Positions 2,751-26,861 are shown, counted from the stretch's first letter. The stretch: DNA of 40,012 bases from Clostridia bacterium (GCA_045578925.1 JAZNLD010000097.1:1-40012), one strand, 5' to 3'. Numbers and translations are program-made. The notes: a model not told the origin generated them from the sequence alone.

Positions 2751-2767
2751 TGAAGGAGTGTATTATT

Positions 2768-5535: not shown

Positions 5536-5545
5536 ATTTGTCTCC

Positions 5546-6532
5546 TTATGCGATTGTCATCTGAAGTGCGGTTTCCTTTGAAATTTCGTTTTGCATTGTT
5601 TCGCCATTTGTAAAGCGAACGATATCGTCAATAAGATAACCCGTGATTCTTTCACGCATATCATAAGTAGGTCCCGCCATATGAGGAAAAAGCATTACAT
5701 TATCGAGGTTACGAAGCTCGTTCCCCTCCTTAGGAGGTTCAGTTTCGTAAACATCCAAAAGCGCTTTGAAACGATTTTCCTTCAATGTTTCAATAAGAGC
5801 CTCTTCGTCAATAACCGCTCCGCGAGAGGTGTTGATGAAAAGTGCGCCGTCCATCAGCAAGTCAAAATGCTTTTTATTAATCATATGGAAGGTTTCAGGA
5901 TTCTTGGCTGTATGCACAGATACAATTTTACATGTGCTGAAAATCTCCTCAAGAGAAGCATATGTGAAACCCTCTCTCTCTGCAAGAGCTTCATCCTCGT
6001 GAGTTGAATAAACTTTGATATTATCAGTGAAAAGACGAAGCTTCGGAATGAGGCGTGATGAAATAGCTCCATATGAAACTATTCCGACGCTCTGTCCGAT
6101 AAGGCCCTCGCTCTTTGCTTCCCAAGTCCATTCACCATTTTTTATAAGACTGCCATAGTGCCCCATATCGCGAAGTGCGTAAAGCATATAGGAAAGCGTT
6201 CCCTCGGCAACAGATTCAGCGTAATAATTGTTACCGCTTATTACCTTTATTCCCTTGTCAAACACGCTTATATCCACTATACCACCTACTGTCCCGCCGG
6301 TGTGTACTATAAGCTTCAAATCGCCTGCAATATCAGCGGTAATAATTGGCTGTCCCCAACCTGTTATTACAACATCTTTACCAATAAGAGCTTCTTTGAG
6401 CTCATCACCGCCTAGCGGTGATGAGCTTTCGTTATATGTTACTTCTCCTATTTTTTCAAGATATTCTTTTATTGCAGGGGTAATAAAACTATTGTTACGA
6501 AACCCCTTTTGGATATTAACAAATATTTTCAT
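5546..6532 (-). CDS. D-isomer-specific 2-hydroxyacid dehydrogenase family, NAD(P)-binding
   Basis: 328 aa. Contains a Rossmann segment GQSVGIVSYGAISSRLIPKL and the family signature FINTSRGAVIDEEALIETLKENRFKALLDVYETEPP, plus a late HMAG segment. It lies 10 nt upstream of the GH78-like gene. Confidence 0.8.
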   Translation of the reverse strand: MKIFVNIQKGFRNNSFITPAIKEYLEKIGEVTYNESSSPLGGDELKEALIGKDVVITGWGQPIITADIAGDLKLIVHTGGTVGGIVDISVFDKGIKVISGNNYYAESVAEGTLSYMLYALRDMGHYGSLIKNGEWTWEAKSEGLIGQSVGIVSYGAISSRLIPKLRLFTDNIKVYSTHEDEALAEREGFTYASLEEIFSTCKIVSVHTAKNPETFHMINKKHFDLLMDGALFINTSRGAVIDEEALIETLKENRFKALLDVYETEPPKEGNELRNLDNVMLFPHMAGPTYDMRERITGYLIDDIVRFTNGETMQNEISKETALQMTIA

Positions 6533-6546
6533 TATAATTCTTCCTT

Positions 6547-9282
6547 TTATCTGTAAAGAGATGAGTTATTAAGTACAACGATGTCGCTAAGCACATAGTT
6601 TCTGTAACGAAGTGCTACGAAAGAACATTCCTCGCCTACACTGTCGTAATCGAGAATTTCGTCATATGTACCGGCAAATACCTTTTCGTCTTCTCTTGTA
6701 GGGTCATATACAGTAACCGCAACGTTCGCAGGGAGCTTTACAACAGCCTTGGCACCAGAAAGCTCTTCATTGCTTCTTGTACCGGGAAGCTTTGTGCCTG
6801 AATTAACGCCACTTGCATAAGCTCCGGGTGATTTGAAAGCAATTGTCATAATGTCGCCTTCTCTTTCAAGAACATAACCATAAATCAGATAGAAGTTGTC
6901 ATAACCTGTCTTCAATCTATCAAGTTCGTGCTCAGCTTCTCTGATAGCTCTTATCTGGAAGCCGTCTTCGTAATGAGAAATAGTAGGTCTGTTGTTTTCA
7001 ACTCTTGTCATCTTACCTGCAGCAGTAGTATAACGGATACCGTCGCCCTGCTTCAAATCAAGAGAATTAAAGTTTTCAACTGATTCTGCACTTACAACGA
7101 CAGATCTCTTTATACCTGCTTCATATCCTTCAACCTTGGGAAGCATCATTTCGAGGTCTTCGTCATACACATAAGATATTTTATCAATTATCAGAATTGA
7201 ATCATCTTTACCTGCATCCCAATCTGTTGAGTTGGTATGTGTAAGAATGAAGTCAGCATACTTTTTTTCTGCATTCATTGTATACGCGGCATAAGAGAAT
7301 GATCTCGGAGGAGAATAGTCGCTAATAACATTACAGCTGGTGTATGTATCATTATTTATGATATCGTATGTTATAGCACCATTTACTATAGGACCTGAAA
7401 CTGCAAATACCGGAGTATCAGCCTTTGTTGCAACTTCTGCACCTAAAACATAGTCTCCCATAAGAGTGCTGCTGGGTGCTGCATCCATTTTCGTCATACT
7501 GCTTAATTTATCTTCATTTGCACCTACTGAAGAAGTATCAATCAAAGATATCTTGCCCTCTGCATTGAGCTCGTAATGAATCGGGAATATTCCCTTTTCA
7601 AAAGTTCCGTCGTTTACTTTCAAAGCAGGAACTGAAGCAATTTTATCGTATACAGTCTTATAGCTCTTTATTTTTTCGCCATCATACTTTACATTCTCAG
7701 CAACTACATATTCTACATATTCGCTGTCAGTATTAAGGAGCTTGATTTTAAGATTCTGCTCTTTGGCATCAATAGATACACCTGTTATCAATCCAAACAG
7801 AAATTCACTTGATAAACCTGCATTGATAGCAGCTATTTTTCCAAAAGGATTGATATATGCTGTAATCTGTTTTCCTAAATCAGGTACTTCTACATCAGGA
7901 AGAAGTTCATATGTTTCTCCACCCATTTCAAGGAATCTTCTTCCGTCTTCATCATATACTGAAGTTGCCTTTCCTTCTACTTTCTCCTCTGCAACGTAAG
8001 CCTTAAGAACCTTTTTTTCAGAGGTTGTTGCATTCTGTGCCACAGAGATAACTACACCGGGCATAAAATCTTCAAGGTATGCTTTCTTACCGCCCATATT
8101 GCTAAGAGAATATTTGTCGTACTTTTCTTCATTAAGAACTACAACTTCATCGGTATTTTTTGAGAAAACACGACCGTCTGAAAGCACAACGCTTTTCACT
8201 ACATAAGTCTTGTACGCTGTGATAACAAAAACATCTGCAACCTTATCCAAATTATTATCTATAACAGTAATACTACCATCAAGGCCTGTCAAATTTTCAA
8301 AGGAGAAGCCTGCATCTGTATAGAATGTACCGTTATATATAACAGATGTCATTGAATTGTATCTTACTTCTTTTTTAACTTTGCCTTCTTTATACTTCAA
8401 TTCGTTCTCGGTAGAACTTGCAAAATCAAATACAGAAAGGTCAAGTTCGTATACGCTGCTTGCTCTTTCTACATTGTAAGAAAGAACCTTTCGTGTACCC
8501 ATTTCTCTGTCATACTGATAAAAAACAGTGATGTGTTTACCGATATTGCTGTCTGCATCAGTTTTTCCTGTATCAAGAAGAAGTTTGCCGTTTGTTGTTT
8601 CCAACTTAAAATGATTTTCAATAAGTGTTGAGTCGCCCCACAAACCTGTCAAATCATTTTCAATTACAGTACCTTTTACTTCATAAACATTGAAAAGGTC
8701 TGCCATAACAGTAACATCTTTGTTGATTTCAAAACTGCTGCCTGTCTGAGTGAATTCAGTAATGTTCATCGCATCCATACACAAAACATTGAAAATCATA
8801 TGTGCAAGGTCGCGATAGGTTGCGTATCCTGAAACGCCGACATTTTTGTAAGCGGCGCTTGTAACTGCAGGATTTGAAAGTGCAACGCCGTATCCTGCAT
8901 ACTGAAGGAGAAGGCGAGCCATATCGTTTACTGCAATATAACCATCGGGATTAAACAGTCCGCCGCCAACGCCACGGAAGTAACCAAGTTCAGTCATTTT
9001 TTCAATTGCATAGGCATTAACACTTTCAGCAGGCACATCTGTATAATATGTACCTGTAGCTGTACCATTATCAAGCTTTGAAAGGTTTAAAAGCACCTGT
9101 GCTACATAGTTTCTCTGAACTTCACGATCAATATTTGCTTCGGTAGAAGACATAATACCCAATGACTCAAGAAGCTGAGATACATATTCGGGAACCGGAG
9201 TTGATGCAGCCTTTGCAAAAGAAGGCAGAGAGGTTACCATAAGCAATGTAACAAGTATTATTGAAATAATTCTCTTTTTCAT
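6547..9282 (-). CDS. Secreted surface protein: N-terminal SLH-like segment plus ~780 aa of beta-rich sequence with no family I can name
   Basis: 911 aa. Signal peptide MKKRIISIILVTLLMVTSLPSFAKA. YTDVPAESVNAYAIEKMTELGYFRGVGGGLFNPDGYIAVNDMARLLLQ fits the SLH pattern F/Y-x-D-V ... G ... G-x-F-x-P ... A-x-LL. Its ATG overlaps the upstream stop (TAATG at 9280-9284). Confidence 0.6.
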   Translation of the reverse strand: MKKRIISIILVTLLMVTSLPSFAKAASTPVPEYVSQLLESLGIMSSTEANIDREVQRNYVAQVLLNLSKLDNGTATGTYYTDVPAESVNAYAIEKMTELGYFRGVGGGLFNPDGYIAVNDMARLLLQYAGYGVALSNPAVTSAAYKNVGVSGYATYRDLAHMIFNVLCMDAMNITEFTQTGSSFEINKDVTVMADLFNVYEVKGTVIENDLTGLWGDSTLIENHFKLETTNGKLLLDTGKTDADSNIGKHITVFYQYDREMGTRKVLSYNVERASSVYELDLSVFDFASSTENELKYKEGKVKKEVRYNSMTSVIYNGTFYTDAGFSFENLTGLDGSITVIDNNLDKVADVFVITAYKTYVVKSVVLSDGRVFSKNTDEVVVLNEEKYDKYSLSNMGGKKAYLEDFMPGVVISVAQNATTSEKKVLKAYVAEEKVEGKATSVYDEDGRRFLEMGGETYELLPDVEVPDLGKQITAYINPFGKIAAINAGLSSEFLFGLITGVSIDAKEQNLKIKLLNTDSEYVEYVVAENVKYDGEKIKSYKTVYDKIASVPALKVNDGTFEKGIFPIHYELNAEGKISLIDTSSVGANEDKLSSMTKMDAAPSSTLMGDYVLGAEVATKADTPVFAVSGPIVNGAITYDIINNDTYTSCNVISDYSPPRSFSYAAYTMNAEKKYADFILTHTNSTDWDAGKDDSILIIDKISYVYDEDLEMMLPKVEGYEAGIKRSVVVSAESVENFNSLDLKQGDGIRYTTAAGKMTRVENNRPTISHYEDGFQIRAIREAEHELDRLKTGYDNFYLIYGYVLEREGDIMTIAFKSPGAYASGVNSGTKLPGTRSNEELSGAKAVVKLPANVAVTVYDPTREDEKVFAGTYDEILDYDSVGEECSFVALRYRNYVLSDIVVLNNSSLYR

Positions 9283-10988
9283 TATTTAGTACCCTCCCCT
9301 TCTACAAGATTTATAAATCTGTCAAGCATTACAGCCGCTTCTGCTCTGTTCGCAAAATCATTGGGTCTGAAGTTATTTTTATCATCACCCTTGATTATGC
9401 CATTGTTATTAAGGATATTTACTGCATTTTTTGCATATTCTGCAATTGATTCAGCATCAACGAATGAAACTTCTCCGCTTTCAAGGGTTTTGCCCTTGAA
9501 GTTTAAGAGATTATTCAATATTACAGCCATATCGCAACGACGGATTTTTTCGTTGGGAAGGAATTCTGTTTCGCTAACACCATTTACGATTTTATTTTCA
9601 AGAGCAGCCATAATATATGAATAATACCATTCATCTGCCTTTACGTCTGCAAATTCCTTGCCTTCGCCTGAGAATTCAGGAAGGAATGCTCTTGAAATCA
9701 TAGTAATGAACTCACCACGAGTGATTGTTCCTTCGGGTTTGAATGTTCCATCTGCATAACCATTGATTATTTCTCTCTTGCTGAGGTTACCAACAGCATC
9801 TTCAGCCCATGCGTAATTCTGCATATCGCTGAATGTGATTTTATCATCAACAGGTTTTTCAGGCTCAACGGGAGTTTCAGGTTCTACAGGATTTTCAGGC
9901 TTTGAAGAACCTCCTCCGCCACCCATGCCGCCTGCAGAAACTCCGCCACCACCGGTTTCATTTCCTGTATAGTCGTCATTTGAGCCATTTTCATCTGAAG
10001 AGTCATCTGAACCGCAAAGTTCATCAAGTTTTTCCTGCATAGTCGCAATTGAATTTTTCTTTGCTGCTGAAAGCTGGGCGATTACAGTACTTCTTTCTGT
10101 GTCGCCGAGAGAAGCATAATCTGAAATTTCAAGATTAGCGTCAAGAGCATATTCATCAAAGAAATCTCTTCTTTCTGCACTTGAAAGAGTTTTGGTTTCG
10201 TTTATAACACCTATAAAGATACTTTCCTGCAATTCCTTGTAGAAGCCATCCTTTGTAGAGATACTCTTGCTTGAAATTCTTTCAATAATATCGTTTTGCT
10301 TGGATTCAGGAATAAGTTCCTTCTGACTGAACTTAATTGCCATTTCTTCTTCATCAACAATATTTTTGATTTCGTCGATTTCTTCAAGCTTTCTTTCATT
10401 CAGAAGCTGTACAGTTACTGAGAAATTAAGAGCATCATTTATATCACCGAGAGATTCGGGACTTTCTGCAACAAGCTCTGTTTCAGAAAGGAAATCTTCC
10501 GCAACAGTAGCTATACCTGCAGTGTTCTCTGCGAGCAAGAACTTTTCCGCGTCGCAAAGGTAGACACCGTTCTCAGCAAGGTACTCAACAAGAGTACCTG
10601 CTTCGATAGCGGCCTTTACTTCAGCAATCATAGAAAGTCTTTCTGCTGCAGAAGCATAATATAAAACTTTTTCTTCACTGTCAACATAGAGGGTATATCT
10701 GCCTCTTTCTGCAGTTGAGGGCATTTTGATGGAATACTCATATACCCCGTATTCTACATCCAAAGGTCTGTAGAAAAGCACAGCAGAAGCAAGTATTTCA
10801 TCGTTTTCGTCAGTTGATGAAATGTCATATCCGGGATTAAGAAGCATAACGCTTACATTATTTTTGTCTGTTTCACCGAATATGTTAATCTTGTCAGCCT
10901 CTTTATCAAGAGTCGCCTCCAAAGATGCAAGTGCCACTGTGGGAAGCATCATAAGAGCTGTAATTATTGCTGTTATTCTCTTTTTCAC
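9282..10988 (-). CDS. Secreted cell-wall anchor protein: helical N-terminal region, Gly/Pro-Glu linker and three C-terminal SLH domains
   Basis: 568 aa. GTG start (10988..10986) overlaps the upstream TGA (GTGA), with AGGAGG 9 nt upstream. The signal peptide is KKRITAIITALMMLPTVALASLEA. The linker GGGGVSAGGMGGGGGSSKPENPVEPETPVEPEKPV spans aa 325-383. Three clear SLH repeats span aa 386-558 (nt 9315-9833), starting FSDMQNYAWAEDAVGNL..GYADGTFKPEGTITRGEF, FADVKADEWYYSYI.. and FVDAESIAEYAKNAV..FRPNDFANRAEAAVML. Confidence 0.85.
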   Translation of the reverse strand: MKKRITAIITALMMLPTVALASLEATLDKEADKINIFGETDKNNVSVMLLNPGYDISSTDENDEILASAVLFYRPLDVEYGVYEYSIKMPSTAERGRYTLYVDSEEKVLYYASAAERLSMIAEVKAAIEAGTLVEYLAENGVYLCDAEKFLLAENTAGIATVAEDFLSETELVAESPESLGDINDALNFSVTVQLLNERKLEEIDEIKNIVDEEEMAIKFSQKELIPESKQNDIIERISSKSISTKDGFYKELQESIFIGVINETKTLSSAERRDFFDEYALDANLEISDYASLGDTERSTVIAQLSAAKKNSIATMQEKLDELCGSDDSSDENGSNDDYTGNETGGGGVSAGGMGGGGGSSKPENPVEPETPVEPEKPVDDKITFSDMQNYAWAEDAVGNLSKREIINGYADGTFKPEGTITRGEFITMISRAFLPEFSGEGKEFADVKADEWYYSYIMAALENKIVNGVSETEFLPNEKIRRCDMAVILNNLLNFKGKTLESGEVSFVDAESIAEYAKNAVNILNNNGIIKGDDKNNFRPNDFANRAEAAVMLDRFINLVEGEGTK

Positions 10989-13285
10989 TGTGCCTCACCT
11001 CCTGTAATTTCGTCTGCTGTAAGAGTCTTGTTATAAACTCTGATACTCTTGAATGTTACGCTACCAGCATATTCTTCATTATCTACACCAAGTGAAACAA
11101 GACCTATATTATCGGGAGCTTTCAAAGTCTTGGAAATAGGAGCATCTTCGCCTTCAATGTACCAGTAAATCTTGCTGTTTGTGCCATCAAATACTACTGT
11201 ATGCTTCTTTCCTACAAGTTTTGCAGAGTCAAACTTGGGTCTCTGAAGAGGTGTTGACCAACCCATCATCTGCACCTGAGTTTCAGATGAAAGGATGAAG
11301 TTATTTCCATCATATGAGAAGAGAACAATGCTGCTACCTTCATCAAAGGTTGCATCGGCAAGTTCAAATTCAAGTGTAAAGTTATGTGTATTGAAGATAT
11401 CTGCAACATCTTCTGCAAGTGCTACTGTACCTGCACCACTCTGAATCTCGTAACCATCTGCTGTCCAGTGTCCAACACTTGAATCAAGAGCAATATGGTT
11501 TTCATGACCACTCTTGTCATTCCATACATTTGAAGAAGTATTTGTATCTTCATCAAATGCTACATCAAGAATGATATCCTCGTGCGGAGGAATTACAATT
11601 TTATCAACCGGAGGAAGCGGGTCGCTAAGGACTGTTTCATCGTCTCCTTCAGTTTCAAAATCTGTTTCAACTTCGGGAGCGTACTGTACATAATCTTCGT
11701 CCCACTTGATAACGGCACAGATTGACGCAGCGTTCCAGTCTGATCTGCCTGTATTGAATATCTTTACATTCTCGCCTGCTTCAAATGACTTTGAATAACC
11801 ATTTACCATAACACGGCTTGTAACTTCAGCTTCATCAAATGCCGTTGTCTGAGTTATACCGGGATCAATAGCACGCTTTTCCTTTGCGTTTGCAGCGTTG
11901 TAGTAAAGACAGCTCATAAGATAATCAACATTCCAGTCATTATAGTCCTTACGGATCTGTCTGTAGTTCACGCCCCAGTCAGGAAAATTTGTAGGTTCAG
12001 TTCCGGGAAGCTTTGTCCAGCCGTCTTCTGAATATGCTGAGGTGTTTCTGAATGTTTCACCCGAAATAACATATATTGTACCGGGTGTATCAGCTGTAAA
12101 GTTGAAATAATCCTCTGTAGCGCTATTTGTGAGCCACCAAGCACTCTTACGAATGTCGGCAAACATAAACATGCTACCACCGAGAAGCTTGTCAGTTATA
12201 TTACCAACTGCCCAACCGTTCTGTGTTGTAATGATTGTTCCATTGTCGTTATTTACAGCACTACCACCAATGAATGCAGGTTTTTCGTTATCATCCGCGC
12301 AACCAGAGAAATTAAATTCAGTAAGTCTGGGCTGACGAGCAGTAAATTCTATCTGATAAACAGATTCTTTTTCGTCTCTACCCTCTTTACCATTTGAAAC
12401 AACAATTTCTACACTTGCAACTTCGTTTTTGACAGGAACAAGATTATTTACTGCATAACGCTTATAAACATAAGCTTCTGAAGCTGTACCGTAAAGCTTA
12501 CCGATATCAACACCATCAACAGATGTTACCATAGTATCTGTAAGATAAGTCTTAACAAGTCCTGCTGTTTCAGGAACAAGTCTTATATTCATTGTATTAT
12601 CGGGAAGCTCTACGCTGTAGTTATAAGTGTTGGGATCGAAATCGGGGATTTCGTATTCTTCGTCACCAAGCAAGTATGTAAGATTTGAAAGAGTGTATGT
12701 TTTTTCTTCTGAATCATACATAGTAAGGGTGATTGTTCTCTTTTCTCCTCTGTATGTAGAAAGCTCAATCTTCGCTCTGCCAGGAGAAACATTATCGCTT
12801 ATTTCAACCTTTGTTGTAGCATCCTTAAGGATAACATCGATATCAACTTCGCCTGCTTCACACATAATGGTATATTCGTCAACTTCGTTTGAAAAATCTG
12901 CGAGTTCTTCACCGTTAATCAAAATTCCGCGAATATCCAATTCTTCAGCAGCGTAAACAGCCTTTGAAGAAGCAGTTTCTCCTCCGAATCCATCAATTAC
13001 ATTTGCGATAACTTCGTCTACGCCTGCATCAATTGTTGCAGAGAGAACACCGTTACTGATTATTCTGTCTGTTTTAATCTGCTTAAGCAAACCGTTTGCG
13101 TATGAAGTTAAAACGAGAATTTTATTTTCAGCACCATCAGGCAAAGTTGCTGTTGCTGTTATAGTTTTTGTATCTTCACTTCTGGTGTAGACAATGTGTG
13201 CCTCACCGGCGGCAACCGCCGCCAATGAGCCAAGCATTGAAATCACACAGATAAGTGCGATAATATTCTTCAAAACCTTTTTCAT
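10985..13285 (-). CDS. Secreted non-catalytic(?) protein: Ig-like N-terminus, two cadherin-like beta-sandwich modules, an unassigned central domain and a C-terminal LamG/ConA-like module
   Basis: 766 aa with signal peptide MKKVLKNIIALICVISMLGSLAAVAAG. YTLSNLTYLLGDEEYEIPDFDPNTYNYSVELPDNTMNIRLVP is typical of cadherin-like beta-sandwich modules (aa ~115-320). The C-terminal aa ~570-760 (nt 11006-11578) has a LamG_3-like pattern (WNDKSGHENH..FTLEFEL..KHTVVFDGTNSKIYWYIEG..FKSIRVYNKTLTADEI). Confidence 0.6.
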   Translation of the reverse strand: MKKVLKNIIALICVISMLGSLAAVAAGEAHIVYTRSEDTKTITATATLPDGAENKILVLTSYANGLLKQIKTDRIISNGVLSATIDAGVDEVIANVIDGFGGETASSKAVYAAEELDIRGILINGEELADFSNEVDEYTIMCEAGEVDIDVILKDATTKVEISDNVSPGRAKIELSTYRGEKRTITLTMYDSEEKTYTLSNLTYLLGDEEYEIPDFDPNTYNYSVELPDNTMNIRLVPETAGLVKTYLTDTMVTSVDGVDIGKLYGTASEAYVYKRYAVNNLVPVKNEVASVEIVVSNGKEGRDEKESVYQIEFTARQPRLTEFNFSGCADDNEKPAFIGGSAVNNDNGTIITTQNGWAVGNITDKLLGGSMFMFADIRKSAWWLTNSATEDYFNFTADTPGTIYVISGETFRNTSAYSEDGWTKLPGTEPTNFPDWGVNYRQIRKDYNDWNVDYLMSCLYYNAANAKEKRAIDPGITQTTAFDEAEVTSRVMVNGYSKSFEAGENVKIFNTGRSDWNAASICAVIKWDEDYVQYAPEVETDFETEGDDETVLSDPLPPVDKIVIPPHEDIILDVAFDEDTNTSSNVWNDKSGHENHIALDSSVGHWTADGYEIQSGAGTVALAEDVADIFNTHNFTLEFELADATFDEGSSIVLFSYDGNNFILSSETQVQMMGWSTPLQRPKFDSAKLVGKKHTVVFDGTNSKIYWYIEGEDAPISKTLKAPDNIGLVSLGVDNEEYAGSVTFKSIRVYNKTLTADEITGGEAQ

Positions 13286-13306
13286 AAAGATTTTCCTACC
13301 TTTCTG

Positions 13307-16300: not shown

Positions 16301-17743
16301 TTCAATAATCCGGGGAATATCTTCCTTGAGGAAGAGAACACGGGGATGTTCGTTCTTCGGAGGATTGATAGGCGGAGCAGGATAATTGCTTGCATCAAGG
16401 ATTTCAACCCTGTTCAAAAGTTCGTCGGGCATATTGCCGTAACGACCTTCCGGAATAAGACCGGGTACGCGTGTTACAAGTACACAGTCAATTGCCGCAT
16501 CCTTTTCACGGCCACGAAGACGAACCTTGTATTCCGTGCCGGGCTCCATAATCTGTGAGTGAAGTCTGTACCAACGGTAATCTTCACCACGTGTCATAGC
16601 CTGCTGCTTGTATGCATTGTTACCGAAAGCATAGAAGAATGAGTCGCTTCGGTTTGTGTTTGCAAAAGTACGAATCCAGACGTTGTAGCTTGCCTTCTCC
16701 TCTACCGTAAATTTTACTTCGATATGAGGACTTGCGGTAGAAGCAGGATTCGTGTTGTTGTTGTAGTTTGATTTCATTGCCTTTACGCCACCGGCGTTAC
16801 GGTCAATTGTAACATCAAAGTGAGAAGTGTAGTTTGCTTCTTCTACGGGGATAATAAGACCGGGGCCTGTAACGAGGAAAGGTTCAGGTCTTTCGTGAAC
16901 GAATGCAGCGTTCTTTTTAACATATTCTGCTGCATTGTCAATTTTCTTTCTGTAAGGCGCGATAACATCGGCAGAAATACCTGCGTCGGCAAGTACATCA
17001 TCAATTGTTACTTCATAGCCTTCAGCATCTTTATATATAGTATGTCCATAATTTTCTTCTTCAAATTTTGCTGTAAAAGTGTCGCCTTTTTCCCAGCCGC
17101 TTTCCATTTTGGAAATATCAAAGCCGTAGAACTTTCCATCTCTTGTGGCATCTGTACAAAAGGCATTTAAAACATCATTTACTATAAGATATACAACACC
17201 GTTTTCACAATCGGCAATATAGTCGAATTTATTGTAAACTTCTTCGTCGGGATTGCTGTGCTTGTAAGTATAATTAAGAGCGTAACCGCGAAGGTCATTG
17301 TCGCCGTCAAAAATAGACATTGAAGCACCGAGATTGAATCTCAACGATTCGGTACTTCCCGTATAATGAGTGATTCTTATACCTGAAGCGTATAAATCGT
17401 CCTGCCCAACGGGGGTAGAATTCAGTCCCTTAACATAAAATCTGACATGGGCAAATTTTGCATCCACACCTGATTTATTGACATAATTCATCATTTTGTC
17501 ACGGGCAGTGCCGTGAGCTTCAAACTGAAGATTAAGTTCAGCGACTCTTCCCTGAGAATCTTTCTGTTGTTCAAAGGTATATGAGCCATCAGTTGCACCT
17601 AACGTAAAAAAGTCAAAGTTTCCCTTGGAAATATTTGCTTCAGAAAATTCTGCCGCAAATACAGCCACAGGAAATAATGACACAACCATTGCAAGTGTCA
17701 TAACTGCGCTTATTATCTTTTTGATAGTTTTTTTCATTTTCAT
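13307..17743 (-). CDS. Secreted multi-domain heparinase II/III-like (DUF4962-type) polysaccharide lyase with accessory modules
   Basis: 1478 aa with signal peptide to AVFA|AE.
- aa 31-265 (nt 16949-17653): unassigned module shared with the 652-aa protein.
- aa 290-427: CBM-like beta-sandwich (VEEANYTS..SYNVWIRTFANTNRSDSFFYAF).
- aa ~455-1110 (nt 14414-16381): lyase core (NEHPRVLFLKEDIPRI, GHGAEAQLLRDLLTLAIAVYDERPD, NGHMHLDAGSFQLYYKG, TIAHNAMLVYD).
- aa ~1225-1335: copper-amine-oxidase-N-like module (YENGKMWVPLRQVTEALGGTVEWD).
- aa ~1345-1478 (nt 13310-13711): F5/8 type C (discoidin/CBM32-like) module. Confidence 0.75.
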   Translation of the reverse strand: MKMKKTIKKIISAVMTLAMVVSLFPVAVFAAEFSEANISKGNFDFFTLGATDGSYTFEQQKDSQGRVAELNLQFEAHGTARDKMMNYVNKSGVDAKFAHVRFYVKGLNSTPVGQDDLYASGIRITHYTGSTESLRFNLGASMSIFDGDNDLRGYALNYTYKHSNPDEEVYNKFDYIADCENGVVYLIVNDVLNAFCTDATRDGKFYGFDISKMESGWEKGDTFTAKFEEENYGHTIYKDAEGYEVTIDDVLADAGISADVIAPYRKKIDNAAEYVKKNAAFVHERPEPFLVTGPGLIIPVEEANYTSHFDVTIDRNAGGVKAMKSNYNNNTNPASTASPHIEVKFTVEEKASYNVWIRTFANTNRSDSFFYAFGNNAYKQQAMTRGEDYRWYRLHSQIMEPGTEYKVRLRGREKDAAIDCVLVTRVPGLIPEGRYGNMPDELLNRVEILDASNYPAPPINPPKNEHPRVLFLKEDIPRIIENLNHPDNAGLKERYDYFLEEGVTKEQTSYSAWNFSAIEVHALDYALFGNKQHGRDAIDALMFMMENVSLSNSGLLYREAGHFIHSAGKVYDWCYDLLTPAERDKILLNSVVFAGSMENGWPPEKQGAFTGHGAEAQLLRDLLTLAIAVYDERPDLWDFIGGRYYREYVPARRVFDTGLLQGSDYGLYRQMWSAYSYALIKGMGGEVPIDLEQYEDNTLWQLYFRRPDGQMVRDGDISAGDKNQIWYYWEDFKMTYLLDAYLTENPYLKREYAKMSPQLDPHMSNNDYSSTADAVIFLEPSTPIAKNHENLPLSKYFDSGVGTLIARTGWEDGAESPAVVANMKLGEHQVNGHMHLDAGSFQLYYKGALATESGVYQGANNSTSGNGASAFGSEHFNYYATKTIAHNAMLVYDPSEAGKAANARSTILDGGQRAVHNSQEYNFKQIAGNEDEYKVSDLQGLEIDPTDPIKPAYTYMKGDFTNAYTDKVSDHKRSFMFLNLDNEEVPAALIVFDKIDSSNPSFKKTWLLHTIEEPQINGNQTVAMRTYKSPVKAYGYNGKLTLDTLLPKSSNIEKVGGDQTGWYTVNGKNYDGQKFASETDEGQTWRVEVSPTAANKEDHFLNVMQVSDADKENYLPTELVENDLFYGVTISDRAVFFSKDAKRTEGDFELSIPGSGKFQYTICDVSAGVYEVTVNGELQTIGVTEEGGVLAFTAEAGNVSVHKTDAEAPQAKKAEVPDPVDTNKVSLRIDNVFIYDENPAYIKEGSTVVTADTLARQYGINISDDSNTVKIWNKNSSITLTNGSKTALTNDGEITLPIAPWYENGKMWVPLRQVTEALGGTVEWDRFSTIVYITSPARDLSLPEGFVRFSEVLPDDGSVDGENYSYNVFDEDPDTIWASNGKGRYITIILEKESDIDAIEVMFNPNQGRNAAFEVAISNDGQNYQTIYSGTGDGSVESGAWEHFDFGSVHKAKYVRFIGQGSNISNWNAVKEIRISGK

Positions 17744-17780
17744 TTTTCTCCTCCCTATAGGGGGCTGTCGTGTAGAGGTT

Positions 17781-17844
17781 TAGCAGAATTTTTTCTGCTA
17801 TGGAAATCGGTATTGCAGGAGTGACCGAAAACGGGCACTCCTAC
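17781..17844 (-). other. Two intercistronic RNA stem-loops without U-tracts, between the 994-aa and 1478-aa genes
   Basis: On the minus strand, GTAGGAGTGCCCG-TTTT-CGGTCACTCCTGC (17844..17815) forms a 13-position stem with 1 mismatch and 1 G.U pair. TAGCAGAA-AAAA-TTCTGCTA (17800..17781) forms a perfect 8-bp stem. Neither is followed by a T-run. Confidence 0.5.
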
Positions 17845-17857
17845 AATTGATTACAGA

Positions 17858-20842
17858 TTAAAATCCTGTTGTAAATGCTTCGTATTCATTTGCAGCATCA
17901 GTTTCAGAAATTTCAACATTGAGGAACTTGATCTGCTGATATACTGCGCTACCTTTACCTGAGATAAGTTTGATATTTTCTGCTACCTCATCTTCGTTGT
18001 AAGGTCTTACAGAGCAAAGTGTGCCATTAAGATACCATTTCACTTCACCCTTATTCTTGTTGACAGTAATTATATGATGATTACCGTCAACTTCTGTGGG
18101 ATGGAGGAAAGGTCTTCTGAGAGTTGATTTCCAACCGGGAAGCTTGAGATAAATCTTTTCTGCACCGATAATCTTATGAACTGCAAAAGTGCTTCTTACA
18201 TCACCGAGGATTGAAAGACTCTTCTTTGCTTCCGGAACATCAATATCGGAAATCGAGAATTCTATTGTGTACTGGCTGCCGTTTACAGTATCCTTTGCAA
18301 TTGAAGGAAGATATGTTGTGCTATCTTCTGCAGTTACATAAAGACCGTTGCTTTCCCAGCTTGAGCCTGCGGGAAGTGCGAGAGCGTTACCGTTTTCGCT
18401 AAGGTCGTACCAGCTTGTTGCAGTTGTGCTCTGGCTGTCGCCGTTAGAAAGACGATAATCGTACCAGAGGACAGTTGCGAAATCAATGTCACCATCGTCA
18501 AAGGGTGCTACTGTATATTCGCCTGAAGCATCGCCATCAACTGAGAATGCGATAGTACCGTCAGTTGAAGTTACATCATAAACACCGAGGGGCCTTGAGT
18601 CCTTCTTAACTGTCCACTTGCCACCTGCGATACCGAAGATGAAGAAGTTCTGATCTTCGCCGCTTTCTACTGTAAAGTCAGCTGACTGTGTAAGTGAGCC
18701 TGTACCAGTGTTTGCGAACATTACAACCTGATTGTAGGGAGTCTGTGTACCTACGAGGCGTGATGATTCGCTTCCGATAAGTGTTGAAGCTTCGGTAGTT
18801 CTCCATGTATCAGAAGCAGTAAGTACGTTAAGGAAGTATGTTGTTGTACCTTCTGTCTGTGCCTGAACTTCAATTCTTCCCCATTCGGGTTCGTTCTTGC
18901 TTTCGTTACGCTGAGTGGGGGTATAAGTCTTACCGTTTGTCTGTGTACCCTGAACAGCAGTAATCTTCGCATTCTGAGGAAGAAGTGTGTTTACAGCAAG
19001 TCTTCCGCCGTATGTAACGCTACCGTTTGAATATTCTGTGGTAAGCGAGTTTTCAATTCTTGTTGTATTGCCTTCTATAGTAGGTGCTGTAGGAAGATGA
19101 AGAAGGAATTTTTTGGTCTGGCTTGACTTCTTGCTTGTAACCTTATCGAATACAACCATTATCGCGGGTGCGCCAGGGCTACCTGTGGGAAGAAATGCCA
19201 TTGAACGGGCAACTTCGCCTGACTTGTTGCTGTTATAAGCAGATGTAAGGTCACCCTTGATGTAAGAGTATGAGTTATCTGCTGCAATTGACTGATTCAC
19301 AACTGCAGATCTCTTGTAGGGAGCGGATGTCTTCCAAGCAGAAAGGTCTTGTGCACCGTATCCGATAAGCTGACCGCCATCGTTAGCGATACTTGTGATT
19401 CCGTTGTCAGATTTGAATGATTCGCTGCTGTCGTAGATAGTAATCGCGTTATGCGCAACCGTTCTTCTGTAATAGTTAAGGTCAAAATCACTGTTGTAGT
19501 CATCCTGCGCACCGAAGTCACCTGTCAGCTGTCCGCGGAAATAAAGCTGGAACGTACCTGCATCAAGGTGATCGTGGTTACCGGAGAATCTTTCACCGAT
19601 TTTCATTTCAGCGGCTGCAACACCGTGGTCCTTTGCACCTGTCTTGATGTAGCCCCAATCGGTCTTAGCGTAAATCTTACCTTCGGGAGAACCGAAATAC
19701 TTACTCTTGGGAAGAGAGCTTCTGTCCTTTTCAAAAGGAACTGAAGGATCGTTCATAATGAGCCAGTAAACAGCGTTAAATGAACGCTCGTCTGTGAAGC
19801 TTGAGCTTGTGAAGACTTCTTCACCGCGCATATATCTGTATTCACCCTTGAAATATTTATCATCGAAAAGGTCAGCAGCAAGCTTTGCAGTCTGCTGGTT
19901 GAAGTTGTTGTAGTACCAACGACCGTTTTCCTTGTTGTCACCTTCGGTAAAGAATCTGCCGTCGGGACGACGAGCATAAATCATACCATAAAGTACATTC
20001 TTCATAAGGTCGGTATTAAAGAGATTCTGTGTGCCGCCGCTCATTTTCTGAACGAGCAATTCAGCATACAAATCCCACGCGAAACGATACCAGCCGTATT
20101 CAGTACCCTGATGGATGTATTCACTGCGATAGTAGTCGTTACGGACAGGAACATATTCCTGCTGGATTCTACCCATTGCAGCATTGTAGATGTCGGGGCG
20201 TTCGTCGTATACAGCGATACCAAATGCAAGCATGTCACGAAGAAGCTGTGCTTCTGAACCGTGACCCTGAATAGCATCCTGTTTCGTAGGCGGATAGCCG
20301 ATTTCAAAGTAATCTTCCATCAGGTCTTCACAGCCGCTGATGATAGAGTTTCTTTCGCTTGAGTCAAGAAGGTCGTAACACCAGTCATAAACCTCGGCAG
20401 CTTTGAACACTACTCCACCTGCAAAGCGGTATTCAAGGCTATTTGAATACTGAACCTTGCCAAGATATTCGATAAGGCGTGCTACAGCAGTATTACCGCT
20501 TGCTTCGTTACCGTTTATGAGGTAATCGAAAGCAAATGCTTCAATCAGGTTTTCATCGTTGAAGTTGTAATTATCGCCTGAAGTCTTGTTACCGATTGAA
20601 ACTGAAGTATAGCTTCCGGAAACAAGTGATTCAAAGTGACTTGTCGCCGCACTGTTCTGAGAAGATGACATGTTTTCCTTGATAGTAGCAATGTCACTGC
20701 TTCTGAGCATTACGCGGGGATGTGTGTTTGCCGGGGGTGTAATGGTGGGGGTCTGATACTTGTTTGAAACCACCGCCGTTACGGAGGATACCATTGTTAT
20801 AATCATAACCATGCTTATAACAACTGCTAAAAGTTTTTTCAT
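17858..20842 (-). CDS. Secreted heparinase II/III-like (DUF4962-type) polysaccharide lyase with a C-terminal LamG-like module; paralogue of the 1478-aa protein
   Basis: 994 aa with signal peptide MKKLLAVVISMVMIITMVSSVTAVVS. The core spans aa ~35-690 (nt 18773-20740): NTHPRVMLRSSDIATI, VYDWCYDLL, GHGSEAQLLRDMLAFGIAVYDERPD, GNHDHLDAGTFQLYFRG, TVAHNAITIYD. All of these align by eye with the 1478-aa protein. The LamG-like module spans aa ~790-985 (nt 17888-18475). Confidence 0.75.
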   Translation of the reverse strand: MKKLLAVVISMVMIITMVSSVTAVVSNKYQTPTITPPANTHPRVMLRSSDIATIKENMSSSQNSAATSHFESLVSGSYTSVSIGNKTSGDNYNFNDENLIEAFAFDYLINGNEASGNTAVARLIEYLGKVQYSNSLEYRFAGGVVFKAAEVYDWCYDLLDSSERNSIISGCEDLMEDYFEIGYPPTKQDAIQGHGSEAQLLRDMLAFGIAVYDERPDIYNAAMGRIQQEYVPVRNDYYRSEYIHQGTEYGWYRFAWDLYAELLVQKMSGGTQNLFNTDLMKNVLYGMIYARRPDGRFFTEGDNKENGRWYYNNFNQQTAKLAADLFDDKYFKGEYRYMRGEEVFTSSSFTDERSFNAVYWLIMNDPSVPFEKDRSSLPKSKYFGSPEGKIYAKTDWGYIKTGAKDHGVAAAEMKIGERFSGNHDHLDAGTFQLYFRGQLTGDFGAQDDYNSDFDLNYYRRTVAHNAITIYDSSESFKSDNGITSIANDGGQLIGYGAQDLSAWKTSAPYKRSAVVNQSIAADNSYSYIKGDLTSAYNSNKSGEVARSMAFLPTGSPGAPAIMVVFDKVTSKKSSQTKKFLLHLPTAPTIEGNTTRIENSLTTEYSNGSVTYGGRLAVNTLLPQNAKITAVQGTQTNGKTYTPTQRNESKNEPEWGRIEVQAQTEGTTTYFLNVLTASDTWRTTEASTLIGSESSRLVGTQTPYNQVVMFANTGTGSLTQSADFTVESGEDQNFFIFGIAGGKWTVKKDSRPLGVYDVTSTDGTIAFSVDGDASGEYTVAPFDDGDIDFATVLWYDYRLSNGDSQSTTATSWYDLSENGNALALPAGSSWESNGLYVTAEDSTTYLPSIAKDTVNGSQYTIEFSISDIDVPEAKKSLSILGDVRSTFAVHKIIGAEKIYLKLPGWKSTLRRPFLHPTEVDGNHHIITVNKNKGEVKWYLNGTLCSVRPYNEDEVAENIKLISGKGSAVYQQIKFLNVEISETDAANEYEAFTTGF

Positions 20843-21079
20843 AATCCTTTCACCTCATTATAAAATTTGTATATATAAAATTAAAAATTATATTTCAAAA
20901 TTATTCGCTTATATATAATAGGAAGCTTTTGCTTTTTTTGATTGATTTATATATTAAACATCAGTAAATGATGATTATTTTCAAATTCATAAGTTTTATA
21001 TCTGGGCATTACTTCGGAAATGAGATAGTTTATATAATGGAATACGCTTCAGATAAAAGTCAGCTTGGTTTAAGGGGTC

Positions 21080-21113
21080 TCCCCCTGCATCAGCAAAAGC
21101 TGATGCAGAGAGA
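21080..21113 (-). other. Strong RNA stem-loop 3' of the 652-aa gene, lacking a U-tract
   Basis: The core is a perfect 10-bp stem CTGCATCAGC-TTTT-GCTGATGCAG. On the minus-strand transcript it extends to 15 pairs through G.U wobbles (TCTCT/GGGGA). On the plus strand those positions would be C-A mismatches, which fits minus-strand transcription. It is followed by GACCCCTTAAACC with no T-run. Confidence 0.55.
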
Positions 21114-21129
21114 TAATCCTTATTAAAGA

Positions 21130-23088
21130 TTAGTTGAGTTCAATAATCTTCTGTTCGAGGAGGGGCTTCATTGTACCATTCTCCCAAAGGTATACAACTG
21201 CAAAATCAACGGGTTCAGCGTAAGCTGAAGCGTCGAAAATCTTGGGTTCTTCTTCGTTACCATAAACAAGACCGCTTTCGAAGTCCTTGATATCAAGGTC
21301 AAGAAGAGCACCTGATTCGCCGTAAACTGCGATATAAAGCTTAGCTGCGCCTTCGTAACGAGTTGCTTCTGCCGCTCCGAAAATTACGAAAAGCGCGCCG
21401 TCTGCTTCAAAGGCGCACTCAGCATCCATCCATTCAAATGTTGTTGCAGGTTCAACACCTGTGATAACTGATTCGATTTCAGCGAAGTCTGCATTCTGGT
21501 TGTAAGTAGAAAGTGTCCAGTTGTCAATTGTAACTGTACCTTCTGCATTCTTAGTGCTAAGGATGATATCGTTTACTCTATTTGCGTAATATGAATCAAC
21601 TTTACCTTCACTTGCAAGCTTGCCGTTAACATATACGTACTGCTTCAAGTAACCCTCGTCAGTACCTGTTTCTACAGGCTCAAGAATCCAGTCGATATGG
21701 TTTGTACCTGTTGTTGTAGCAGTGGGCTTATAACCGCTGCCGTTACAGGTTATATTACTGCCGCCCTTTACACCGACAACAAGGTTTCCGTTGTTGTTCC
21801 ACATCTGGAGTGCCTGCTCCGTACCTGAATATCTTGTTTCATACTTGAGCCACATTCCATCGTTTGAGATTGTCTGGTCAAATGAAAGCTTGATGTATTT
21901 TGCACGGGGATGATAGCTTTCATAGCTGATACCTGTCTTACCATTTATGGGGTAGAAGCCTGAAAGCATTTTTGCAGCTGTAGCATAGTTTTCAGTATCG
22001 GTATTTGTAGCTTCGATTGTAGCTGCTGTACCTGAATATGTAATATTTTCGTTAATTCTCTGTCTTTCGCTGTAGTCCCTTTCATATGTGTATACATCTG
22101 TAAATATACCATAATTGTATCCGGGCATATACCATTCGAGGTCGCCTGCTTTTGACTTGTAAATCATATTTTCTTCGTCAAGCTCAGCACCAAGACCTGC
22201 ATCCTGCATAACGTCTTCCATAGTTACCATGTAGTCATCAGTGTTGTAGTACTCTCTGTGACCTACTCTGTCAGTGTCAAACTTTGCAGCAACATAGTCA
22301 CTGTTACCTCTTGTTTTCTGTCCGCTGGCAATTCTGAGAACTATACCATGGAAATGCTTGTCGGTAAGACCAGAGTCATAGTATGAACCCATAAATTTTC
22401 CGTTTACGAAAATATATGATGTAGCACCGCCCTGCTTATTATATTCCACAATAAGGTCAACCTTATCATAATCTTCTGCTTTAGGAGCAGTTTGGTGTGA
22501 ATTTGCTGTTACATTGTCTGCAGGGCCATTACCTGCTCCACCCTGATGAGCTATGCCCATCCAGTCCTTTGAAGTGTAAGCAGCACTACTTGAGTAACTT
22601 GCGGGGTAAACTGAGGTTTCAAAATTATCTCCTTCTTTCCATGTGTGGAAAAGATAAGCATCTCTTGAAGAACCTGTTCCATCCTTGTCCAAACGCAGCT
22701 GAAGCTTATTCGTAGCATTTCTATACTGGTCAGAGAATGATGCAAGATAGAATCTCATATGTGCATAAGTTGCATTTACATCTTGATATTCGCCATAATC
22801 TGACGCAGATACACCGAACTTGTATGCTACGGGGTTTCTGTTGCTGGTTAATGTTTTTCCTGAAGATGCAACCATTTTTACCGCTACAAGATTTTCGTCT
22901 CCATCGCTGTCTATTTCATACTCTTTAAAGTACTCAGCAAAATCTGAAGTACTTGTGTAGAAGCCTCTTTCATACTGGTGCCAGTTTGCTTCTGAAAAAG
23001 AACCTTCTTCTGCTGCCATTGAAGGAATAGCAACAAATGCCATAATCATCATTACTGACAATGTCAGGCTTAAAACTTTTTTAAACAT
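21130..23088 (-). CDS. Secreted protein of unknown function with two jelly-roll-like modules; the N-terminal one is shared with the 1478-aa lyase
   Basis: 652 aa with signal peptide MFKKVLSLTLSVMMIMAFVAIPSMAAEE and GGAGG 7 nt upstream of the ATG. No catalytic or binding family is recognisable by eye. See findings for the module homology. Confidence 0.6.
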   Translation of the reverse strand: MFKKVLSLTLSVMMIMAFVAIPSMAAEEGSFSEANWHQYERGFYTSTSDFAEYFKEYEIDSDGDENLVAVKMVASSGKTLTSNRNPVAYKFGVSASDYGEYQDVNATYAHMRFYLASFSDQYRNATNKLQLRLDKDGTGSSRDAYLFHTWKEGDNFETSVYPASYSSSAAYTSKDWMGIAHQGGAGNGPADNVTANSHQTAPKAEDYDKVDLIVEYNKQGGATSYIFVNGKFMGSYYDSGLTDKHFHGIVLRIASGQKTRGNSDYVAAKFDTDRVGHREYYNTDDYMVTMEDVMQDAGLGAELDEENMIYKSKAGDLEWYMPGYNYGIFTDVYTYERDYSERQRINENITYSGTAATIEATNTDTENYATAAKMLSGFYPINGKTGISYESYHPRAKYIKLSFDQTISNDGMWLKYETRYSGTEQALQMWNNNGNLVVGVKGGSNITCNGSGYKPTATTTGTNHIDWILEPVETGTDEGYLKQYVYVNGKLASEGKVDSYYANRVNDIILSTKNAEGTVTIDNWTLSTYNQNADFAEIESVITGVEPATTFEWMDAECAFEADGALFVIFGAAEATRYEGAAKLYIAVYGESGALLDLDIKDFESGLVYGNEEEPKIFDASAYAEPVDFAVVYLWENGTMKPLLEQKIIELN

Positions 23089-23108
23089 AAATTTTCCTCC
23101 TTAAATAT

Positions 23109-23138
23109 ATTATAGGATAAAATTAAATTTTGTATAAA
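23109..23138 (-). promoter_or_regulatory. Putative internal sigma-A-type promoter for the secreted-protein block
   Basis: Minus strand: TATAAT (23114..23109) with TTTATA 18 nt upstream (or TTATAC at 17 nt), supplied by the proximal copy of the tandem repeat. Caveat: the predicted leader would start only 1-2 nt before the GGAGG. Confidence 0.35.
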
Positions 23139-23180
23139 TGTGTATAAATGATGTATAAATGTTGCGTAAATTGTAAATTT
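23131..23180. repeat. Tandem 10-11-bp repeat with 3 perfect copies of TGTATAAATG plus 2 degenerate copies
   Basis: Perfect copies lie at 23131-23140, 23141-23150 and 23152-23161. Degenerate copies are TTGCGTAAAT (23162-23171) and TGTAAATTT (23172-23180). The array is bracketed by the perfect direct repeat AATTAAATTT at 23121-23130 and 23181-23190. Confidence 0.85.
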
Positions 23181-23195
23181 AATTAAATTTCAAGA

Positions 23196-24728: not shown

Positions 24729-24821
24729 TGTACCATTTCCTTTCTTTTTTATATATTTAATTAAATTTAATTGCATTTTTTTGCAGGTCGTTTTCACCTG
24801 TGGGTTAGGAAGTGTAAAGTT

Positions 24822-25694: not shown

Positions 25695-25710
25695 GACATT
25701 CTCTCCTCTC

Positions 25711-26652: not shown

Positions 26653-26805
26653 TGGTAAATCACCTCAGTTATATTTTAACATTGTTACATTTTCGTTACA
26701 ACGGCATATTTTTGACATCAGCACCTTATTTTTTACCTTTAGGTAAATACTTCCAACCCCTTTGTTGACAGTATGGACAGATTTTTCTCCACTTTCCTTT
26801 TTTTC

Positions 26806-26834
26806 TTGATTTATGTTTCATTTTTTGCTATAAT
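26806..26834 (+). promoter_or_regulatory. Sigma-A-type promoter of the membrane AraC regulator gene
   Basis: TTGATT (26806-26811), a 17-nt spacer, then TATAAT (26829-26834), with a TG at the extended -10 position (TGcTATAAT). GAAAGGAGG RBS at 26846-26854, 7 nt before ATG 26862. Confidence 0.6.
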
Positions 26835-26861
26835 GTAAAAAACAAGAAAGGAGGCCACTAT

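Follow-up and report, generated by a model that had tools for sequence, protein, structure and literature searches.

A candidate wall-anchored glycan-capture system encoded beside two heparinase II-type lyases in a Clostridia bacterium

A 40,012-nucleotide (nt) stretch of DNA from an uncultured gut Clostridia bacterium (GCA_045578925.1, JAZNLD010000097.1:1-40012), referred to here as the window, contains a block of six consecutive minus-strand open reading frames (ORFs) at 6547-23088. Their products of 652, 994, 1478, 766, 568 and 911 amino acids (aa) are called p652, p994, p1478, p766, p568 and p911. The block is probably the extracellular arm of a Gram-positive polysaccharide utilisation locus (gpPUL), in which p568 and p911 would be bound to the cell wall, a capture assembly would hold the glycan, the lyases p1478 and p994 would cut it nearby, and an ATP-binding cassette (ABC) transporter would import the products. 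We are highly confident that the locus as a whole is a Gram-positive utilisation locus for an acidic glycan, with extracellular enzymes of polysaccharide lyase family 21 (PL21), ABC import and cytoplasmic finishing. Moreover, it is held with moderate confidence that p568 and p911 are anchored to the wall by surface-layer homology (SLH) domains, and, likewise with moderate confidence, that p766, perhaps together with p652, associates with p568 as a capture assembly.

For a handful of systems, among them the cellulosome-type complexes, it is well understood how Gram-positive gut bacteria keep polymer capture, cleavage and import together at their surface, but for most others it is poorly understood. 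The present locus is a compact and testable case, in which four tiny unannotated families are tied by synteny and gene fusions to a wall anchor and stand beside well-understood lyases.

Layout of the gene block

The block had been described in a first-pass annotation made from the sequence, and the six ORFs and their sizes (5369 aa summed) were reproduced. The spacing was also reproduced: the first three gaps measure 287, 114 and 21 nt, and the genes at the last two junctions overlap by 4 nt (GTGA) and 1 nt (TAATG). The six genes, in the order of transcription, are as follows.

21130-23088, minus strand: p652, secreted; two jelly rolls of concanavalin-A/LamG type, with a small beta domain at the C-terminus
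17858-20842, minus strand: p994, secreted; PL21 lyase at aa 36-766, Laminin_G_3-like tail at aa ~800-990
13307-17743, minus strand: p1478, secreted multi-module lyase
10985-13285, minus strand: p766, secreted, non-catalytic-looking
9282-10988, minus strand: p568, anchor protein with SLH (132 bits)
6547-9282, minus strand: p911, signal peptide, diverged SLH triplet, then ~740 aa of small beta-barrels

A Shine-Dalgarno-like sequence was found ahead of every block ORF (6/6). Signal peptides had been claimed for all six products, and a basic N-terminus with a hydrophobic stretch was present in 6/6 (best 12-residue hydropathy 2.1-3.2), while a signal-peptide-like N-terminus was absent from the enzymes encoded downstream, namely, a D-2-hydroxyacid dehydrogenase, a GH78-like protein and a GtaA-type protein. 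The window proteins were singletons within a collection of 15 billion proteins, and p1478 and p911 had no exact counterpart in the assemblies searched. The window appears to span an entire NCBI contig.

The modules that had been proposed to link the products were recovered. The lyase core of p1478 aligned with p994 (36% identity over 693 aa, E 1e-105), the N-terminus of p1478 with p652 (E 1e-8), and the LamG-like tail of p766 with that of p994 (E 1e-8), and a Cu_amine_oxidN1 module was found both in p1478 and in p1388, a 1388-aa beta-helix protein encoded elsewhere in the window. The SLH sequences reported for p568 and p911 were seen through Pfam in the former and through a profile match to the Sap SLH domain and a fold match to SpaA-SLH in the latter. 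Furthermore, the two products named as heparinase II/III-like, p1478 and p994, were confirmed as heparinase II-type lyases, and the description of the remaining modules as lectin-like or unassigned was upheld by Foldseek, Pfam and profile scans. Among the window proteins, no match to a TonB-dependent transporter or SusD family was obtained, in agreement with the reported absence of SusC/D analogues, and none matched dockerin (PF00404) or cohesin at E <= 0.01. The claim that the system lacks cohesin and dockerin therefore stands for this window, but it does not extend beyond it, as a dockerin is attached to a paralogue of p652 in a syntenic relative.

In that relative, locus L021, the dockerin-bearing protein (12043-14106) is a second p652 paralogue with Big_2 and a type I dockerin, and the organism probably has cohesin scaffolds. 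Within one locus, this organism deploys the p652 module in three ways, namely, free, with dockerin and with SLH.

Two full-length PL21 lyases

In sequence alignments, both p1478 and p994 match heparinase II (PL21) over its full length and keep its catalytic and zinc residues. They are new members of PL21. The modules of p1478, encoded on the minus strand, are as follows.

aa ~30-260: module 1, resembling p652 domain 1
aa ~290-430: module 2, CBM-like (carbohydrate-binding module), a weak match
aa 461-1200, nt 14144-16363: module 3, PL21 core
aa 1231-1333, nt 13745-14053: module 4, Cu_amine_oxidN1
aa 1361-1470, nt 13334-13663: module 5, F5/8-C / CBM32

Residues 461-1193 of p1478 aligned with the Pedobacter heparinase II structures (PDB 2fuq/3e80) over the full enzyme length of ~730 aa (E 8e-112), and residues 36-766 of p994 aligned with heparinase II in the PDB, also over the full enzyme length (E 1e-86). 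The similarity spans the (alpha/alpha) toroid, the beta-sheet domain and the C-terminal domain, and the Pfam families Hepar_II_III_C and HepII_C were matched. With the NCBIfam model HepB, p1478 scored 518 bits and p994 423 bits, both under the equivalog cut-off of 600 bits. His202, Glu205, Tyr257, His406, His408 and His451 of heparinase II are kept in both p1478 and p994, and the position of Asp425 is occupied by Asp in p994 and by Glu in p1478. Three of these positions, His408, Asp425 and His451, are taken by us to be the zinc ligands of heparinase II (Shaya et al. 2006). Tyr257 and His202 have catalytic roles in that enzyme (PMC11848413).

The orthologues of p1478 were 74, 63 and 50% identical to it. 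When scanned alone, the tail module shared by p994 and p766 matched Pfam Laminin_G_3 with 29.7 bits against a cut-off of 27.6, and the sub-region Pfam scan of the p1478 N-terminus assigned nothing. Proteins with PF07833 (Cu_amine_oxidN1) are placed by the literature among surface proteins and in cell-wall hydrolases.

The putative anchor proteins p568 and p911

The p568 protein begins with a signal peptide and ends with the SLH repeats, and its modules are as follows.

aa ~25-110: small beta module
aa ~110-330: alpha-helical stalk, followed by a Gly/Pro linker
aa 385-560, nt 9309-9836, minus strand: SLH, three repeats

The motifs read from the three repeats were TRGE, RRCD and NRAE; a TRAE-type motif in SLH is required for binding pyruvylated wall polymer. 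The part of p568 outside SLH is rare. Its N-terminal 340 aa had 20 representatives among 1.84 billion proteins, and the sub-region Pfam scan of this N-terminus assigned nothing. An autoproteolytic anchor of the GAIN/MAIN type was considered for p568 and dropped, because the order of its subdomains, a beta module and then helices, does not fit.

In p911, the diverged SLH triplet occupies aa ~30-170 (nt 8773-9195, minus strand). Its Pfam score for SLH, 18.5 bits, was under the cut-off of 20.8 bits, and the profile of the p911 family matched the Sap SLH domain with E 5.6e-7. In the AlphaFold2 (AF2) model of p911 (pLDDT 70.5, pTM 0.43), the N-terminal 150 aa were placed on the SpaA SLH trimer with a Foldseek probability of 1.0 and a TM-score of 0.62-0.68. 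The Arg of the SLH motif is kept in repeats 1 and 3 only, and R57 alone is invariant across the family. The body of p911 was without a match in the Pfam scan. Foldseek matches of the body in the PDB and viral libraries (S1, LEF-3, HIN and DDB1) were set aside as uninformative, since they represent generic strings of small beta-barrels. The p911 family comprised 9 clusters among 5.8 billion clusters, and the search of the genome collection with p911 returned zero relatives.

The lectin-like proteins p652 and p766

The AF2 model of p652 (pLDDT 82, pTM 0.77) had its best overall Foldseek matches in laminin LG and galectin tandems, and its single domains also matched jelly-roll lyases of PL36, PL14 and PL20, as well as CBM40. 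The whole protein had no match in Pfam or NCBIfam, and its domains scanned singly gave nothing in Pfam. The family was small, with 21 clusters among the 5.8 billion, and its invariant residues (Y351, Y389, K400, D404, Q405, Y416, N463, D466 and N488), which are mostly polar or aromatic, all lie in domain 2. The p766 protein consists of the following modules.

Ig-like module
aa ~113-320: cadherin-like modules
aa ~320-540: unassigned, highly conserved central domain
aa ~580-760: Laminin_G_3 tail

The central domain is the most conserved part of p766. In the sub-region Pfam scan, aa 320-560 were assigned nothing, and the p766 family profiles gave no match among solved structures. This family comprised 24 clusters among the same 5.8 billion.

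Elsewhere, modules like those of p652 and p766 were found fused with other partners, namely, Big_2 plus dockerin, CE4 deacetylases and a phosphatase domain. Given these partners, the modules behave as ancillary binding modules. An alternative was nevertheless considered, in which p652 or the p766 central domain would not be a lectin but a novel enzyme module, acting as a jelly-roll lyase, a hydrolase or an esterase. The single-domain matches of p652 to PL36, PL14 and PL20, and the confinement of its invariant, mostly polar or aromatic residues to domain 2, are what a hidden enzyme would be expected to give. The conservation of the p766 central domain and the dockerin on one p652 paralogue point the same way; dockerins are more usual on enzymes. 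However, the TM-scores to lyases were low (0.36-0.43), and the best overall matches were lectin tandems. Moreover, the modules are appended to catalytic domains (PL21, CE4 and phosphatase), as binding modules usually are. A catalytic role for either protein is therefore considered unlikely, and p652 and p766 are treated below as lectin-like.

Conservation of the locus in relatives

A scan of genomes with the p1478 alignment gave matches in metagenome-assembled genomes (MAGs) only, from Clostridia, Ca. Aphodoplasma and others, and the closest named relatives are uncultured Clostridia MAGs. A scan of metagenomes gave two further loci. The accessory families, represented by p652, p766, p568 and p911, were syntenic with genes for PL21, GH78-like proteins and 2-hydroxyacid dehydrogenase in at least seven other metagenomic loci. 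Co-conservation of gene order had been suggested as a check on the first-pass annotation, and the order was kept in the related contigs.

The closest correspondence was found in L001 and L005, where p911 was 53% and 41% identical, respectively. In both, the order 994-1478-766-568-911-dehydrogenase-GH78-(TIM barrel)-GtaA-GH88 family is kept, and a gene of the Glyco_hydro_88 family ends the syntenic run. The 4-nt and 1-nt overlaps are retained in both loci as well; thus, the split genes are not a frameshift artefact. L021 and L004 belong to one 560-kb contig, on which the locus is kept from the AraC regulator and the importer onwards. In the more distant loci L018, L019, L020, L022 and L023 (27-34% identity), genes like those for p766, p568 and p911 lie next to one or more of three genes, namely, those for a Hepar_II/III lyase, a GH78-like protein and the dehydrogenase; L022 is a short contig on which only the p568-like/p911-like pair is visible.

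The dehydrogenase gene directly follows the p911-like gene in L001, L005, L020 and L023, and in L019 a 551-aa Hepar_II_III protein intervenes between the two. In the window, it lies 14 nt beyond p911. As it is the most constant neighbour of p911 in the relatives, the unit extends past position 6547. Accordingly, the earlier treatment of the six genes as the functional unit was not supported, the unit being the whole utilisation locus with regulator, importer, six genes, dehydrogenase and cytoplasmic hydrolases.

When the window was compared with L001 and L005, the identities were 72-87% for the cytoplasmic enzymes, 63-76% for the lyases and 41-59% for the accessory surface proteins. The surface proteins thus evolve faster than the enzymes (41-59% versus 63-87% identity).

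These contexts bear on the possibility that p568 and p911 serve the lineage generally, as envelope or S-layer proteins unrelated to glycan use, and that their genes lie in the locus by chance. The layout of p911, an N-terminal SLH triplet and a long beta-rich body, is indeed that of many S-layer proteins. However, a lyase gene and a sugar-acid dehydrogenase gene flank the translationally coupled run to which the two genes belong, and this context is kept in eight other loci. The sole differing context, L006, also concerns glycan degradation and includes GH141-like SLH proteins, and a general envelope component would be far commoner than these families are. Chance residence of general envelope proteins is therefore regarded as highly improbable.

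The L006 cluster (6320-22652) contains the most distant p911 relative, with 24% identity, and is a different gene cluster. Its genes encode, in order, an SLH protein (567 aa), a BspA-type leucine-rich repeat protein, the p911-like protein and giant beta-helix proteins resembling GH141, of which one has SLH. Lyase contexts are thus not the only ones in which the p911 family occurs. Together with p1388 of the window, L006 suggests that GH141-like enzymes recur near such surface proteins.

In L004 (12983-14635) and L019 (8274-9929), an extra Hepar_II_III_C protein of ~550 aa is encoded right after the p911-like gene; it does not occur in the window, and it may act as a lyase on oligosaccharides. 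Two PL21 loci, L008 and L015, lacked the accessory genes. The latter (1236-16667), from an Eubacteriales MAG, has five tandem PL21 paralogues that are 27-29% identical to p1478/p994, with no accessory genes in view. In L001, the GH88-family gene that closes the syntenic locus is directly followed by a gene for a phage-type integrase (19831-20952), and likewise in L002; the locus may thus lie at the boundary of a mobile element or island.

Fusions among the accessory proteins

In relatives, the accessory proteins occur fused to one another. Single polypeptides combining p766 and p568 were P0046-P0049 and P0059, those combining p568 and p911 were P0058, P0060 and an ORF of L023, and those combining p652-like and p568-like parts were the 1186-aa protein of L004 and P0057. 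Because the rare non-SLH part of p568 is included, the fusions are more than SLH shuffling. Since p766, p911 and p652-like proteins are each fused to p568, a wall-anchored assembly with p568 as its hub is supported. The fusions are read here as evidence that the four accessory proteins act at the same place and in fixed proportion, with p568 as the common partner.

The wall-anchored multi-protein machine proposed in the first-pass annotation was therefore borne out in part. The fusions of p652, p766, p568 and p911 back a shared surface assembly, whereas a physical machine is something that we infer only, and the attachment of the lyases to it is conjecture.

The same loci could also be read as an ordinary utilisation locus without any assembly, in which the proteins are secreted independently, p568 and p911 are mere wall-bound binders, and the fusions reflect routine domain shuffling between neighbours. 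SLH is promiscuous, and the p652-like and p766-like modules occur in many different fusions. Furthermore, p766 is missing in L004, hairpins divide the block, and the PL21 loci L008 and L015 are without accessory genes, all of which would be expected of independent proteins. Against this, two rare sequences take part in the fusions in addition to SLH, namely, the region of p568 outside SLH (20 representatives) and the body of p911 (9 clusters), and three different partners are joined to one hub protein. The adjacent order and the overlapping stop and start codons are also maintained from 27% to 59% identity. The account with no assembly is thus considered somewhat unlikely, and a shared surface assembly is preferred.

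A more specific form of the assembly is put forward tentatively. Here, p568 would be the hub of an undescribed cohesin/dockerin-free wall complex, with p766 and p652 as lectin-like cargo and p911 as partner, each free or fused according to the lineage, and the lyases might be recruited through the Cu_amine_oxidN1 or LamG-like modules.

Proposed mechanism and substrate

With two PL21 lyases, an ABC importer and an AraC regulator at 13307-29066, the locus falls within the published definition of a gpPUL (PMC5320581). In the mechanism proposed here, p568 (a stalk with three SLH) and p911 (an SLH triplet with a beta-barrel body) would bind the secondary cell-wall polymer. The p568 protein would hold the lectin-like p766, and possibly p652, off the wall by a non-covalent contact that replaces the peptide bond found in the relatives. 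This assembly would capture an acidic glycan containing 4-linked glucuronate or iduronate, and the captured glycan would be cleaved near the cell by the lyases through beta-elimination, with p1478 perhaps kept at the wall via Cu_amine_oxidN1. The resulting unsaturated oligosaccharides would pass through the ABC importer to cytoplasmic finishing by the dehydrogenase, the GH78-like protein and the GtaA-like protein, with a GH88/GH105-family hydrolase taking part in the relatives.

No sulfatase was found among the window proteins, and GH78-like, UxuA, PIG-L and NagA genes are present. This gene context suggests that the substrate, instead of heparin itself, may be an unsulfated polymer containing glucuronate with N-acetylglucosamine (GlcNAc) and/or rhamnose.

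Several points weigh against the mechanism as drawn. The set of proteins is not fixed, as the relative L004 is without p766. Adjacent-gene fusions show compatible location and stoichiometry, not necessarily binding. Neither lyase carries SLH, and a role of PF07833 in wall retention would be putative. The SLH of p911 is degenerate, with the usual Arg absent in repeat 2, so its binding to wall polymer is uncertain, and the predicted p911 model is only of moderate quality. Transcription of the block may be divided into separate units at the hairpins that follow p652 and p994. Finally, PL21 activity has so far been demonstrated on heparin and heparan sulfate alone (PMC11848413), and another substrate is argued from gene context only.

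If the assembly is real, it would represent a second, cohesin-free way of tethering glycan capture to the wall, and it would give names and roles to families that are currently blank. Independently of the assembly, PL21 is extended into uncultured gut Clostridia in a sulfatase-free context, which hints at a non-heparin substrate.

Comparison with known systems

SLH-tethered glycan degradation in Gram-positive bacteria is a known strategy, and cellulosomes have SLH-bearing anchoring scaffoldins, for example SdbA, OlpB and Orf2p of Acetivibrio thermocellus. The design of p568 follows the plan of these scaffoldins: a presenting module stands at the N-terminus, a linker comes next, and the SLH triplet at the C-terminus would hold partners at the wall. 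Unlike them, p568 is without cohesin and its partners in the window are without dockerin, and the link between them is one that we infer from the fusions alone.

The lyases resemble heparinase II (HepB) of Pedobacter heparinus, the PL21 enzyme, in the full-enzyme alignment, the catalytic Tyr/His and the zinc ligands. In contrast to HepB, p1478 and p994 fall under the equivalog cut-off, belong to a Gram-positive host and have no sulfatases beside them in the window, so that their substrate may not be heparin. They also carry extra modules, namely, ConA-like, CBM-like, Cu_amine_oxidN1, CBM32 and LamG.

The surface glycan-binding proteins of Bacteroidota (SusD/E/F-like) are likewise non-catalytic, encoded in the locus and fast-evolving, and the accessory proteins would similarly capture polymer near an endo-acting enzyme and an importer. 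However, no relation in sequence or fold exists between the two groups; here, SLH would attach the proteins to wall polymer, whereas the Bacteroidota proteins are held by a lipid anchor in the outer membrane, and SusC/D are absent.

As in the gpPULs of Sheridan et al. 2016 (PMC5320581), the regulator, ABC importer and degrading enzymes are clustered, binding modules are present on the secreted enzymes, and finishing is cytoplasmic. What differs is that ~2900 aa of the present locus are devoted to four non-catalytic-looking surface proteins of otherwise unknown families, two of them SLH-anchored. The MAIN-domain surface proteins (bioRxiv 10.64898/2026.05.12.724683) are wall-anchored and carry lectin or enzyme cargo non-covalently on the anchor part, which resembles the split p766 and p568. 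In those proteins, however, the split arises from autoproteolysis at an HX(S/T) site in a GAIN fold, whereas two genes are involved here and no GAIN-like subdomain order was seen in p568.

The literature was searched for a Gram-positive PL21 locus, the GtaA/DUF5127 family and SLH-linked lyases, and no characterised equivalent was found. A characterised syntenic locus, whose existence would have undercut the first-pass annotation, was likewise not found in the literature searched. While gpPULs and SLH tethering are known, the new elements here are four families without annotation and the way in which they are organised, linked by fusions and free of cohesin, around a protein of stalk and SLH.

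Hairpins and transcription

It had been claimed that no terminator separates the importer from the block, and the gap between the binding-protein gene and p652 was indeed without a hairpin. Within the block, two strong hairpins were found.

21080-21113, minus strand: hairpin after p652, 15-bp perfect, -32.8 kcal/mol, z -5.7, in the AT-rich 287-nt gap; no U-tract
17812-17847, minus strand: hairpin after p994, -28.4 kcal/mol, z -7.5; no U-tract

These hairpins speak against the block being transcribed simply as one unit, and they may serve as leaky terminators or stabilise 3' ends. The p994 hairpin has a counterpart after the L001 orthologue and none in L005, where the gap is 39 nt. The run 1478-766-568-911-dehydrogenase is tightly packed.

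A further hairpin with a T-run at 5472-5499 (minus strand) was considered as the end of the operon and rejected. It lies in the first 25 codons of the GH78-like gene with z -2.7; as the GH78-like N-terminus is conserved in orthologues and the hairpin is weak, it is probably no terminator.

Neighbouring genes

The genes around the block are as follows.

26862-29066, plus strand: AraC-family regulator, 734 aa; Pfam HTH_18 and HTH_AraC at the C-terminus, N-terminal membrane segment
23196-26652, minus strand: ABC importer; permeases at 25711-26652 and 24822-25766 (BPD_transp_1 in both), solute-binding lipoprotein at 23196-24797 (SBP_bac_1)
5546-6532, minus strand: D-2-hydroxyacid dehydrogenase (Pfam); cytoplasmic, no signal peptide
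3532-5535, minus strand: GH78-like protein (Pfam); cytoplasmic, no signal peptide
2738-3535, plus strand: xylose-isomerase-like TIM-barrel gene, between the GtaA-type and GH78-like genes
727-2640, minus strand: GtaA-type six-hairpin protein (Pfam); cytoplasmic, no signal peptide
31089-35255, minus strand: p1388, secreted beta-helix protein, 1388 aa; C-terminal Cu_amine_oxidN1, separately transcribed
2-709, minus strand: secreted alkaline phosphatase (Pfam Alk_phosphatase, E 4e-27), gene partial at the contig edge

The AraC regulator is transcribed divergently from the importer, and its L021 orthologue is in the same position with 40% identity. The importer is also syntenic in L021 (63-69% identity). 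In the binding protein, a lipobox, LLLTAC, follows an internal MKK start. The binding-protein ORF at 23196-24797 appears to have been called too long, with the probable start at the internal MKKALALVLALMLLLTAC lipobox, ~23 codons in. Similarly, the TTG start of the second permease (24822-25766) appears too early, as it gives a 56-nt overlap with the first permease.

The GH78-like protein is only distantly related to known rhamnosidases, and the GtaA-like protein had no relative among solved structures. The TIM-barrel gene is on the opposite strand in the window and in L005 and co-oriented in L001, which represents a small inversion in an otherwise collinear locus. Further along the window lie genes for DUF4432, a PIG-L deacetylase, p1388, a short-chain dehydrogenase/reductase (SDR), UxuA, a second AraC regulator and NagA. 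The p1388 protein weakly resembles BT_1002, a GH141 enzyme, and a second structure with a parallel beta-helix. Phosphate may be present on the substrate, as hinted by the phosphatase gene at the contig edge, the fusion of p652 relatives to Y_phosphatase3 (P0025 and P0030) and a phosphodiesterase gene that follows GH78 in L018.

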